Assembly (NCBI RefSeq): GCF_054482595.1
Contig: NZ_CM137008.1
Strand: one strand, 5' to 3'
DNA: 64,000 nucleotides
Part shown: in pieces, positions 51,620 to 56,473 of the stretch
Layout of the letters: every line of letters begins with the position of its first letter
Numbering within the stretch: the stretch's first letter is position 1
Made by a program: the position numbers and the translations under genes
The notes under the pieces: generated by a model
Databases searched by the model: none
Seen by the model: the letters and a program-made list of their open reading frames with translations, nothing else
What the model was told of the DNA's origin: nothing

Positions 51620-52579
51620 ATGAAGCCGGAAAACAAACTACCTGTTCTGGACCTTATTTCTGCTGAAATGAAGACCGTTGTGAATACTCTTCAGCCGGAT
51701 TTACCGTCCTGGCCCGCAACGGGAACGATTGCTGAGCAACGACAGTATTACACGCTTGAGCGCCGATTCTGGAATGCGGGCGCTCCAGAAATGGCAACCA
51801 GAGCTTACATGGTTCCAACAAAATATGGGCAGGTGGAAACACGTCTCTTTTGTCCGCAGCCAGATAGCCCGGCGACGCTATTTTATTTGCATGGAGGCGG
51901 TTTTATTCTCGGCAATCTCGATACCCACGATCGCATCATGCGCCTGCTGGCAAGCTACAGCCAATGTACGGTGATTGGTATTGATTACCCCCTTTCACCT
52001 GAAGCGCGTTTTCCGCAAGCGATAGAGGAAATTGTGGCTGCTTGTTGTTATTTCCACCAGCAGGCGGAGGATTATCAAATCAATATGTCCCGCATTGGCT
52101 TTGCCGGTGATTCCGCAGGTGCCATGCTGGCGCTCGCCAGTGCGTTGTGGTTGCGTGATAAACAGATCGATTGCGGTAAAATTGCGGGTGTTTTGCTGTG
52201 GTATGGGCTTTACGGATTACGGGATTCCGTGACTCGTCGTCTGTTGGGCGGTGTCTGGGATGGCTTAACGCAACAGGATTTGCAGATGTATGAAGAGGCG
52301 TATTTAAGCAACGACGCGGACCGCGAGTCACCGTATTACTGTCTGTTTAATAATGATCTCACTCGCGAAGTTCCGCCCTGTTTTATTGCCGGGGCGGAGT
52401 TCGATCCGCTGCTGGATGACAGCCGTCTGCTTTACCAGACGTTAGCGGCGCATCAGCAGCCCTGTGAGTTCAAACTCTACCCAGGTACGCTGCATGCCTT
52501 TTTGCATTATTCACGAATGATGAAAACCGCCGACGAGGCTCTTCGCGACGGCGCTCAGTTCTTTACCGCTCAGCTTTAG
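51620..52579 (+). CDS. aes: acetyl esterase (alpha/beta hydrolase)
   Basis: 319-aa ORF; HGGG oxyanion motif and GDSAG nucleophile motif. Confidence 0.9.
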
Positions 52580-53538
52580 CGATACGCGGCAACAAGATTA
52601 GCCATCATTTCGATATGTTCCGGCGTGGCATTAAGCGCTGGAATATATTCATATTTTTTCCCGCCGGCACCGAGGAAGACCTCACGGTTTTGCTCGGCAA
52701 TCTCTTCCAGCGTCTCCAGACAATCCGCAGCAAAGCCCGGGCACATCACCTGTATATGACCTACGCCTTTTTCTCCGAGCATTTTCAGCGTTTCGTCGGT
52801 ATAAGGCATCAGCCAGGGTTCCCGGCCAAAGCGCGACTGAAAGGTCATCATCACTTTTTCCGGTGCCATCCCCAGTGCGGAAGCCAGTTCGCGAGTCGTT
52901 GTGCGGCAACGTTGCGGGTAATCATCGCCTTCATCTGCATAACGCTGGGGAATGCCATGATAAGAGAGCAGCAGCAGATCCGGTTCGCCATGTTTGGCAA
53001 AAGAAGCGCGTACGCTGTTCGCCAGTGCATTAATGTAATCGTGGTTATCGGCGTAATCACGAATAAACGATATCCCCGGAATGCTACGTTTGCGCGCCAG
53101 AATGCGTGCCAGTTCATCCCATACCGCACCGACCGTAGAACAGGAGAATTGCGGATAAAGCGGCAGCACCACAATATGATCTACATGCTCTGCCAGGAGT
53201 TCATCGACGGCGCTTTCCAGTGATGGCGAGCCGTAGCTCATGCCCAGCGCTACGGGCGTATCCGGTAAACGTTGTGCCAACGCCTGCTGTTGCTGGCGGC
53301 TGTAAACCATCAGCGGCGAGCCGTCTTCCATCCAGACCGAGGCGTACAGCTTCGCCACACGCGGCGAGCGCAGCGGCAAAATCACGCCGCGCAGCAACGG
53401 CCACCATAACAACCGTGAGGTATCAACCACGCGTCTGTCGCTTAAAAATTGTTTCAGATAGCGTTTTACCGCTTCAGGTGTGGGGGCATCGGGCGTACCC
53501 AGGTTTGCCAGCAGGATACCGGTTTTAGTCTGACGCAT
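52576..53538 (-). CDS. hemH: ferrochelatase
   Basis: 320-aa ORF; 4-nt overlap with aes stop. Confidence 0.92.
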
Positions 53539-53773
53539 TACCGCCTCTTATCGATTCAACTTGTTGATAATTGTAGCGGAAAAGTGAGGAAGAAGAACTA
53601 ATTGCTGTGAGAGGTCAAATCAGAAAAAGGAATAGCGCAGATTGAGGTTTTTGTAAAAGGCCGAATGAATATCCGGCCTGAGATTGCTGATAAGTTTGCT
53701 TGTGCGGGCCTGTTCCCCTCACCCTAACCCTCTCCCCGAGGGGGCGAGGGGACTGTCCGTGCGCGCTTTCGAA

Positions 53774-54490
<717 letters not shown>

Positions 54491-54598: not shown

Positions 54599-56473
54599 TC
54601 AGGAAACCAGCAGCTGGTTCATACGACGAATAAACAGGTTCGGATCTTCCAGCGTGCCGCGTTCTGCCAGCAGCGCCTGATCCAGCAGCAGTTCTACCCA
54701 CTCGCTGAACTTCGCTTCATCTTCAGTATCTGCCGCACGTTTCACCAGTACGTGATCCGGGTTCAGTTCGAAGATGTATTTCACTTCTGGCACTTTCTGG
54801 CCCGCCGCAGCGAACAGTTTCGCCATCTGAGTGCTCATTTCGTCCGCGTCGGTCGAAACGATCGCTGGCGTATCGGTCAGACGGTGAGTCAGACGGACAT
54901 CTTTCACGCGCTCGCCGAGCAGGGCTTTCACACGGTCGATGAACGGAGTCAGTGCTTTCTCCGCTTCTTTCGCGCTCTCATCAACTTCGTCAGCCAGTTT
55001 TTCCAGCGACTCGTCAACTTTAGACACCGACTGGAACGGTTTACCGTCGAACTCAGTCAGATAGTTCATCATCCACTCATCGATGCGGTCGGAAAGCAGC
55101 AGAACTTCGATGCCTTTCTTACGCAGCAGTTCCAGGTGTGGGCTGCTCTTCGCTGCCGCATAGCTGTCTGCAGTGATGTAGTAGATTTTCTCCTGCCCTT
55201 CTTTCATGCGGGAAACGTAGTCTTCCAGAGACACGGTCTGCGCAGAAGAATCGGTATAAGTAGAAGCAAAACGCAGCAGTTTGGCGATCGCTTCCTGGTT
55301 AGCGAAATCTTCCGCCGGACCTTCTTTCAGTACCAGGCCAAACTGTTGCCAGAAGGTCTGGTATTTTTCCGCGTCGTCTTTCGCCAGTTTTTCCAGCATT
55401 TGCAGCACACGCTTGGTCAGCGCATTGCGCAGGTTACGCGTTACCGTGCTGTCCTGGAGGATTTCACGGGAAACGTTCAGCGGCAGATCGCTGGAGTCAA
55501 TCAGACCACGCACGAAGCGCAGATAGTTCGGCATGAACTGTTCTGCGTCGTCCATGATGAACACACGCTGGACGTACAGTTTCAGGCCGTGTTTATGATC
55601 ACGGTTCCACATATCCCACGGAGCCTGGGACGGGATGTACAGCAGGCTGGTGTACTCCTGCTTACCTTCAACGCGGTTGTGGCTCCAGGTCAGCGGATCA
55701 TTAAAGTCGTGGGCGATGTGTTTGTAGAACTCTTTGTACTCTTCATCGGTGATTTCCGACTTGTTACGAGTCCACAGCGCCTGCGCTTTGTTGATTTTCT
55801 CCCAGGAGATAACGGTTTCGCCGTCTTTCTCTTCGCGTTTTTCGATCTCTACCGGCAGCGCGATATGGTCGGAGTATTTGCTGATGATGGAACGCACGCG
55901 CCAGTCATCGAGGAACTCGTCTTCGCCTTCACGCAGATGCAGGGTGATTTCAGTACCACGATCTTCTTTGGTGATGTCGGCAACGGTATATTCACCTTCG
56001 CCAGCCGATTCCCAGAAGACGCCGTTTTCTGGTTTTTCGCCTGCCGCGCGAGTACGCACGGTCACTTTGTCGGCCACGATAAACGCAGAGTAGAAACCAA
56101 CACCAAACTGACCGATCAGCTGGCTGTCTTTCGCCTGGTCAGAACCCAGGGATTCGAGGAATGATTTGGTACCGGATTTAGCGATAGTCCCCAGATGGTC
56201 AATCACTTCGTCGCGGGTCATCCCCACGCCGTTATCGGAGATGGTCAGCGTGCGCTTGTCTTTATCGAAAGAGACACGAACGCGCAGTTCGCCATCACCT
56301 TCGTACAGGTCCGGGTTAGATAGCGCACGGAAACGCAGCTTGTCCGCCGCATCGGAGGCGTTAGAGATAAGCTCACGCAGGAAGATTTCTTTATTGGAAT
56401 AGAGAGAATGGATCATCAGGTGCAGAAGCTGTTTCACTTCTGACTGAAAACCACGAGTTTCTTGTCCTTTCAT
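54599..56473 (-). CDS. htpG: Hsp90-family chaperone
   Basis: 624-aa ORF; GHKL ATPase N-terminus. Confidence 0.95.

Follow-up and report, generated by a model that had tools for sequence, protein, structure and literature searches.

The adk-hemH locus

The stretch of DNA analyzed here (hereafter, the window) comprises 64,000 nucleotides of contig NZ_CM137008.1, from the NCBI RefSeq assembly GCF_054482595.1, and belongs to Escherichia coli. It carries htpG (56473..54599), adk, and hemH on the minus strand and aes on the plus strand. The genes hemH (minus, ending at 52576) and aes (plus, ending at 52579) are convergent, and their stop codons overlap by 4 nt (52576-52579). The interval from the 3' end of adk to the start of hemH (53535-53780) is identical in alignment to that of E. 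coli K-12 MG1655, and window positions are converted to K-12 coordinates as 497843 + (53750 - window position). In K-12, adk ends at 497819 and hemH starts at 498055, and the copy of the BoxC repeat that is the subject of this work lies between them. The features of the interval are the following:

53776..53774, minus strand: stop codon (TAA) of adk
53654..53773, minus strand: 3' UTR of adk, 120 nt, with the BoxC copy inside it in sense orientation and the G-rich blocks in the mRNA
53616..53772, minus strand: block of about 157 nt specific to the long allele of the spacer (BoxC, its flanks, the terminator, and a further 40 nt or so), delimited by alignment
53700..53766, minus strand: approximate full BoxC unit, core and semi-conserved flanks, delimited by an alignment of 13 copies
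53714..53752, no strand: dyad noted in the original prediction, corresponding to the outer stem of the minimum-free-energy RNA fold
53715..53750, minus strand: BoxC/PIT/TMECO core, 36 nt, type 'A mm', with one C-rich and two G-rich blocks, assigned by its consensus and by identity with a copy tabulated in the literature
53654..53679, minus strand: intrinsic terminator of adk, AGGCCGGAU-AUUC-AUUCGGCCU followed by UUUA, assigned by its fold and by Term-seq
53539..53615, minus strand: conserved region upstream of hemH, ACCTCTCACAGCAATTAG...CGCTACAAT...AAGAGGCGGTA, the same in both E. coli alleles
53538, minus strand: start codon (ATG) of hemH

The original prediction, made from the sequence alone, described a GC-rich imperfect dyad downstream of adk, with no U-run, and offered three readings of it: a non-canonical terminator, a protein site, or a member of a dispersed small repeat family. 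The sequence it quoted is indeed present between the two genes, at 23 nt from the adk stop, which it follows, and at 176 nt from the hemH ATG, which it precedes. A repeat search retrieved the inverted repeat, with arms TCCCCTCACCC (53714-53724) and GGGCGAGGGGA (53742-53752) that are 11 nt long, 91% complementary, and 17 nt apart. The dyad is directly followed by AACAGGCCCGCAC, which confirms the lack of a U-run. While the arms are complementary as described, the element is not a simple dyad. The 17-nt spacer includes a third homologous block, CCCTCTCCCC, which reads GGGGAGAGGG on the minus strand and had been overlooked, so that the motif has three blocks. Also missed was a second and smaller hairpin, with TTTT, which on the minus strand follows after another 35 nt.

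The 23-mer and the three-block degenerate motif had no match in 100 dinucleotide-preserving shuffles of the window. The BoxC hairpin taken alone has a predicted RNA folding energy of -30.4 kcal/mol, with a z-score of only -1.9 against shuffles because of its high G+C content. An Rfam scan of positions 53400-53900 (E <= 10) returned nothing but sub-threshold chance matches, the best of them at 19 bits for a eukaryotic antizyme frameshifting element whose gathering score is 40 (E = 0.2).

On the hemH side of the spacer, the conserved region contains a -10-like TACAAT at 53575..53570. Among the best 80 of at least 595 related adk loci, this region is kept in Escherichia, Citrobacter, Kluyvera, and Salmonella. 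We regard it as the putative promoter region of hemH.

A catalogued copy of the BoxC/PIT/TMECO family

BoxC is a repeat of E. coli that was reportedly described by Bergler et al. in 1992 and surveyed by Bachellier et al. in 1999, and the PIT (potential intrastrand triplex) element is said to come from the work of Hoyne, Maher et al. in 2000/2002. On the minus strand (53750..53715), the core of the element in the window reads CCCTCGCCCC-CTC-GGGGAGAGGG-TTA-GGGTGAGGGG. The published consensus of TMECO elements is CCCTCNCCCN3-6GGGNGAGGGN3GGGNGAGGG (PMC4666352). The corresponding three-block pattern, CCCTCNCCC-N3-6-GGGNGAGGG-N3-GGGNGAGGG, has exactly one match in the 64-kb window, at 53750..53716 on the minus strand, and none in 100 shuffles. 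Table 1 of Holder et al. (2015, PMC4666352) lists as TMECO no. 6 the 36-mer CCCTCGCCCCCTCGGGGAGAGGGTTAGGGTGAGGGG, located at 497843-497878 in K-12 and assigned to type 'A mm'. The 36-mer of the window is identical to it base for base and occupies the orthologous position between adk and hemH. The same authors regard BoxC, the PIT of Hoyne and Maher, and TMECO as one single element (Holder et al. 2015, PMC4666352). BoxC has been presented as an E. coli repeat of about 56 bp (range 51-59 bp) with 32-33 copies in K-12 (PMC2267715, PMC5172473). It is also known as an intergenic element, and so is the copy in the window, which is bounded by the adk stop (53774) and the hemH start (53538).

The fit to the consensus and the identity with a tabulated copy at the orthologous position identify the dyad as a catalogued copy of a known family. 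We consider it nearly certain that it is this BoxC copy and that it is not the terminator of adk. The third reading of the original prediction, a dispersed small repeat family, was therefore the right one, and a genome-wide search for the motif, which had been proposed as a check, retrieved it at a median of 15 places per genome (see below). Instead of a unique motif with no transcript end nearby, we found a multicopy motif and a nearby end, although the latter belongs to another structure. The element itself is already known, since descriptions of the family go back to the 1990s and this very copy was tabulated in 2015. What this work adds is local context only: the site is inside the mapped 3' UTR of adk, and it is part of a derived allele found in about 54% of E. 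coli genomes.

The 3' end of adk transcripts

The smaller hairpin downstream of BoxC has the features of an intrinsic terminator. Its stem (53679..53658) has 9 bp and a 4-nt loop and is followed by UUUU, with a predicted energy of -13.2 kcal/mol and a z-score of -5.1 against shuffles. Public Term-seq data place a 3' end at K-12 position 497939 (LB OD 0.4 and M63) or 497940 (LB OD 2.0), with the flanking sequence ...CAGGCCGGATATTCATTCGGCCTTTTA before the end and CAAAAACCTC after it (Adams et al. 2021, PMC7815308, supplementary file 1). Position 497939 corresponds to 53654 in the window, which is the A that follows the stem and the U-run. The curated Term-seq peak tables of the same study, on which our comparison relies in place of raw coverage, hold no 3' end at 4978xx, the region of BoxC, in any of the three growth conditions (PMC7815308). 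The transcript of adk thus ends about 60 nt beyond BoxC. Mapping of RNA 3' ends had been suggested in the original prediction; it did reveal an end nearby, at 53654, but none at the dyad.

Since the mapped end follows the second hairpin, BoxC is internal to the 3' UTR of adk, and the terminator is a separate and canonical structure. The BoxC copy is transcribed in sense within this UTR and is not a site of 3'-end formation. A scan for consensus terminators returned nothing at either hairpin; it missed the terminator of adk because the tail has 4 T in 8 positions where the scan needs 5. Consequently, the site should be annotated as a BoxC/PIT/TMECO repeat inside the 3' UTR of adk and not as a terminator, and the label of adk terminator belongs to the hairpin 53679..53658, which precedes the mapped 3' end (53654).

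Two other entries of the Term-seq study concern this region. The 3' ends at 497939/497940, where the adk transcript stops, are nonetheless labelled 'orphan' (PMC7815308). The study also reports a Rho-dependent region on the adk/hemH strand at K-12 position 498060 (about 53533 in the window), a few bases inside hemH, with a score of 4.0 and p = 1e-17 (PMC7815308, supplementary file 2). Its location implies read-through from upstream that is curtailed by Rho.

Two alleles of the spacer

A megablast search with the 381-nt region across E. coli genomes revealed two alleles of the adk-hemH spacer. We aligned the window and K-12 with one O157:H7 strain, one ST131 strain, and one wastewater isolate. 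The spacer is 235 nt long in the long allele and 131 nt in the short one. The long-allele block of about 157 nt, whose boundaries are good to within 2 nt because the alignment is ambiguous there, is replaced in the short allele by an unrelated block of about 52 nt (locus positions 388-440) that lacks BoxC. This short block contains a 12-bp hairpin, GCAGCAGATCTGC-TTTCGG-GCAGGTCTGCTC, with a predicted energy of -22 kcal/mol (z = -4.2) and no U-run. The sequence downstream of the block, ACCTCTCACAGCAATTAG...CGCTACAAT...ATG, is common to both alleles. No duplicated junction was found in the alignment at the boundaries between the alleles, which argues for a block replacement and not for a clean insertion.

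Both alleles are frequent. The part of the long block outside BoxC is present in single copy, with at least 99% identity, in 2,913 of the 5,426 E. coli genomes. The long allele thus occurs in about 54% of the complete genomes of the species, and BoxC is missing at this position in the remaining 46% or so. The short allele is carried by the O157:H7 and ST131 strains, the wastewater isolate, E. albertii, and the GTDB representative of E. coli. The Adk protein (WP_001220233.1) is the same in all three short-allele strains that were fetched.

To polarize the change, we used the best 80 of at least 595 candidate adk loci, taken at one genome per species, nearly all from other species of Enterobacterales. 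None of these 80 loci has BoxC between adk and hemH, and none has a homolog of the long block beyond the BoxC core and the conserved block upstream of hemH. Together with the short spacer of E. albertii, this indicates that the long allele is derived within E. coli, a polarity that rests mainly on E. albertii and on more distant genera, as E. fergusonii, E. marmotae, and S. enterica subsp. enterica fall outside the best 80 of the at least 595 loci.

The slot that follows adk is occupied by different hairpins or repeats in other genera. Among the best 80 of at least 595 loci, the first 100 nt or so beyond the adk stop contain TCTCACCCGG...CCGGGTGAGA in Enterobacter, Klebsiella, and Kosakonia, whereas Citrobacter, Kluyvera, and Pluralibacter have REP/BIME-like units in the same slot. 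The block upstream of hemH remains conserved.

Distribution and persistence of BoxC copies

We delimited the repeat unit by aligning the copy of the window with those of 11 further K-12 loci from Table 1 of the TMECO survey, which gave 13 motif copies in one orientation with 30-nt flanks. The copies share GGTC immediately 5' of the core, GAA immediately 3' of it, and looser outer GCAC motifs. The flanks of the unit read (a)aaGCGCAC-GGAC-(A/G)GTC on the 5' side and GAAC-N5-6-GCAC on the 3' side. These shared flanks give a unit of about 55-65 nt, in agreement with the 51-59 bp of BoxC, and the paralogous megablast match spans positions 99-162 of the query, i.e., 53762..53699 in the window. The GCAC motifs that flank type-A copies were considered as target-site duplications and discarded, as they are semi-conserved parts of the unit and not exact duplicates specific to each copy.

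A blastn search with an 81-nt query located 72,972 BoxC places in 5,407 of the 5,426 complete E. coli genomes, with a maximum of 26 per genome. Nearly all are chromosomal (72,945), against 27 on plasmids of the E. coli assemblies. BoxC is nearly absent from phages (3 of 50,697 records) and rare on genuine plasmids, since many of the plasmid matches are either chromosome-sized records or related G/C-rich motifs (in Rhizobium, Klebsiella, and others). The plasmid and phage searches thus point to no mobile element as a vehicle for BoxC.

In ten of the 12 K-12 loci fetched, a stop codon lies no more than about 170 nt upstream of BoxC, and in eight of these ten the copy is in sense relative to the gene concerned. 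The other two stop-proximal copies are antisense, and the remaining two of the 12 loci are divergent promoter regions. The TMECO survey found no positional or functional bias of the elements, and it found loci with TMECO to vary more from strain to strain than did intergenic control regions (PMC4666352).

Some copies are long-lived. The one between zntA and tusA occurs in 5,148 of 5,426 E. coli genomes, and divergent strains differ in it by about one substitution. Among the best 80 of at least 595 adk loci, another copy recurs in the htpG-adk spacer of Phytobacter, Enterobacter, Kluyvera, Klebsiella, and Pseudocitrobacter, always at the same place, some 170 nt before the adk start. It is located as follows:

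Locus positions 1331-1363 in seven loci and 316-348 in one: BoxC copy of the htpG-adk spacer, accompanied in three of these loci by a second, inverted copy nearby

E. coli lacks a BoxC copy in this spacer. The conserved placement suggests that the htpG-adk copy has persisted for very long across genera.

Other copies decay. In strain 19AR0646, the copy between frlR and yhfS has an internal deletion of 52 nt (locus positions 280-331) that leaves only the remnant GAGGGGACCGT. The deletion adjoins a REP-like palindrome and exemplifies the decay of the element. We considered this variant as a potential empty site and rejected it, because the deletion is internal and a remnant stays. Clean empty sites were sought at the zntA-tusA and frlR-yhfS loci and none was found, the zntA-tusA copy being nearly fixed. 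No target-site duplication could be defined at the BoxC loci examined.

Comparison with other small elements

In its three-block motif, its flanks, its intergenic position, and its multicopy dispersal, the element of the window matches BoxC/PIT/TMECO, from which it does not differ. REP and BIME are also small, GC-rich, palindromic intergenic repeats that often follow a stop codon closely and whose RNA can fold into stable hairpins. Yet their consensus is unrelated to that of BoxC, lacking motifs of the GCCGGATG/CCTGATGCG type, and BoxC has a third block. BoxC is not known to be associated with RAYT-type transposases. NC_000913.3 has no annotated REP or other repeat in 495500-498500, and the element of the window is unrelated in sequence to the REP-like units that follow adk in Citrobacter and Kluyvera among the best 80 of at least 595 loci. 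Intrinsic terminators resemble BoxC in having a GC-rich stem-loop after a stop codon, whereas BoxC has neither a U-tract nor a mapped 3' end. Finally, BoxC resembles MITEs in being short, non-coding, multicopy, palindromic, and intergenic. It differs from them by the lack of terminal inverted repeats matching a known IS element. Moreover, the allele junctions show no target-site duplication, and the exchange of 157 nt for 52 nt is not a clean pair of filled and empty sites.

A probable structure-prone passenger

The DNA of the element has been studied in vitro. When single-stranded, the G-rich strand forms a very stable, hairpin-based intrastrand triplex of the purine motif, and oligonucleotides of type A mm adopt this triplex according to CD and NMR, with a Tm of 74 C (PMC4666352). 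No triplex formed in duplex DNA, and none was detected by DMS footprinting in vivo (PMC4666352). In the window, the G-rich strand corresponds to the K-12 plus strand, which is the non-template strand of adk. Given the orientation of the replichore, this strand is presumably also the lagging-strand template at 0.5 Mb. The G-rich half of the core, GGGGAGAGGGTTAGGGTGAGGGG (53715-53737, minus strand), contains a GGGTTAGGG core that resembles the vertebrate telomere repeat.

The comparison of alleles shows that, in the lineage leading to K-12-type strains, an ancestral spacer segment of about 52 nt was replaced by the block of about 157 nt that carries BoxC. We propose that the repeat is most likely a structure-prone passenger with no dedicated role in the expression of adk or hemH. 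It would plausibly have two side effects: a stable RNA hairpin in the 3' UTR of adk, and a G-rich strand that, when exposed during replication or transcription, folds transiently and may thereby promote local rearrangements. Two observations are in line with some instability of BoxC loci, namely the 52-nt deletion at frlR-yhfS and the raised variability reported in the TMECO survey (PMC4666352). The BoxC copy between adk and hemH is probably a passenger without a dedicated local function, since about 46% of the genomes lack it and the three short-allele strains have the same Adk accession. The overall explanation, which blends the two claims of a catalogued BoxC copy and a passenger, has in our estimate a probability of about 0.85. 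Nevertheless, the long persistence of the zntA-tusA and htpG-adk copies is not easily explained by a purely neutral or selfish passenger, and it may be a pointer to an undiscovered function of the family.

The alternative that fares best, while still improbable, is that BoxC is an RNA-level element of the 3' UTR, which would block 3'-to-5' exonucleases or determine processing or stability. Some REP elements are known to act as exonuclease barriers or determinants of mRNA stability. The BoxC copy is transcribed in sense inside the UTR and is predicted to form a very stable stem, and most of the K-12 loci fetched (10 of 12) share the stop-proximal location and mostly (8 of 10) the sense orientation. 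On the other hand, the terminator hairpin at the extreme 3' end already gives the usual protection, and the two antisense copies and the two loci in divergent promoter regions weaken the case for such a role. The published survey found no positional or functional bias (PMC4666352). Furthermore, nearly half of the species, including the three strains with the same Adk, does without BoxC at this position.

Less plausible is that BoxC is the site of a protein that binds DNA or RNA, such as a nucleoid or recombination factor; a protein site was one of the readings originally offered. The copies are extremely conserved in sequence, including their semi-conserved flanks, and certain copies are long-lived within E. 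coli and across genera. Yet the literature that we searched reports no protein binding to BoxC, near-identical copies are typical of recent copying and not of a degenerate protein-binding motif, and the loop positions vary freely (Table 1 of PMC4666352).

Even less credit can be given to a G-quadruplex, in DNA or RNA. The stretch GGGG-AGA-GGG-TTA-GGG-TGA-GGGG has four G-runs and 3-nt loops that follow the canonical G3+N1-7 x4 pattern, and the possibility was acknowledged in PMC4666352. However, the adjacent C-rich block competes through Watson-Crick pairing, and NMR of the full oligonucleotides gave 18 sharp imino signals, as in a triplex and not as in a three-tetrad quadruplex (PMC4666352).

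The U-less terminator or pause site for adk is the weakest of the alternatives and can practically be set aside: a strong GC-rich hairpin does lie 23 nt after the adk stop and a Rho-dependent region lies nearby (K-12 498060, PMC7815308), but the stem has no U-tract, the curated ends fall after a different hairpin with UUUU in all three conditions, the Rho region is about 180 nt downstream of BoxC and the element is G-rich in the mRNA, the copies in pstA-pstB and yihS-yihR are antisense to the surrounding operon, and earlier tests of PIT/BoxC elements, in so far as they are cited in PMC4666352, detected neither promoter nor terminator activity nor any effect on RNA polymerase. The rut sites on which Rho acts are in general C-rich, unlike BoxC in the mRNA of adk.

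Beyond the passenger explanation, the observations also allow a joint and quite speculative scenario, which we hold to be unlikely. The swap from the short to the long allele, which brought BoxC together with a terminator, would have rewired the coupling between adk and hemH in K-12-type (A/B1-like) E. coli, and the persistent copies (zntA-tusA, and htpG-adk in five genera) would reflect an undiscovered function of BoxC. If this were the case, the BoxC hairpin and the terminator could yield a stable, processed fragment of the adk 3' UTR or alter the read-through into hemH, and short-allele strains, with their U-less hairpin, would co-transcribe or regulate hemH differently.

The useful outcomes of the analysis are the correct labels of BoxC and of the adk terminator and the record of a spacer with two alleles. 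As the spacer splits E. coli roughly in half, its long and short forms provide a natural allele pair with which to study effects on adk mRNA and on hemH expression, a modest opportunity. The junction between the alleles (53596-53640, minus strand) coincides with the upstream edge of the conserved promoter-proximal block of hemH, and any regulator site reaching more than about 40 nt upstream of TACAAT would differ between them. OxyR is a reported regulator of hemH.
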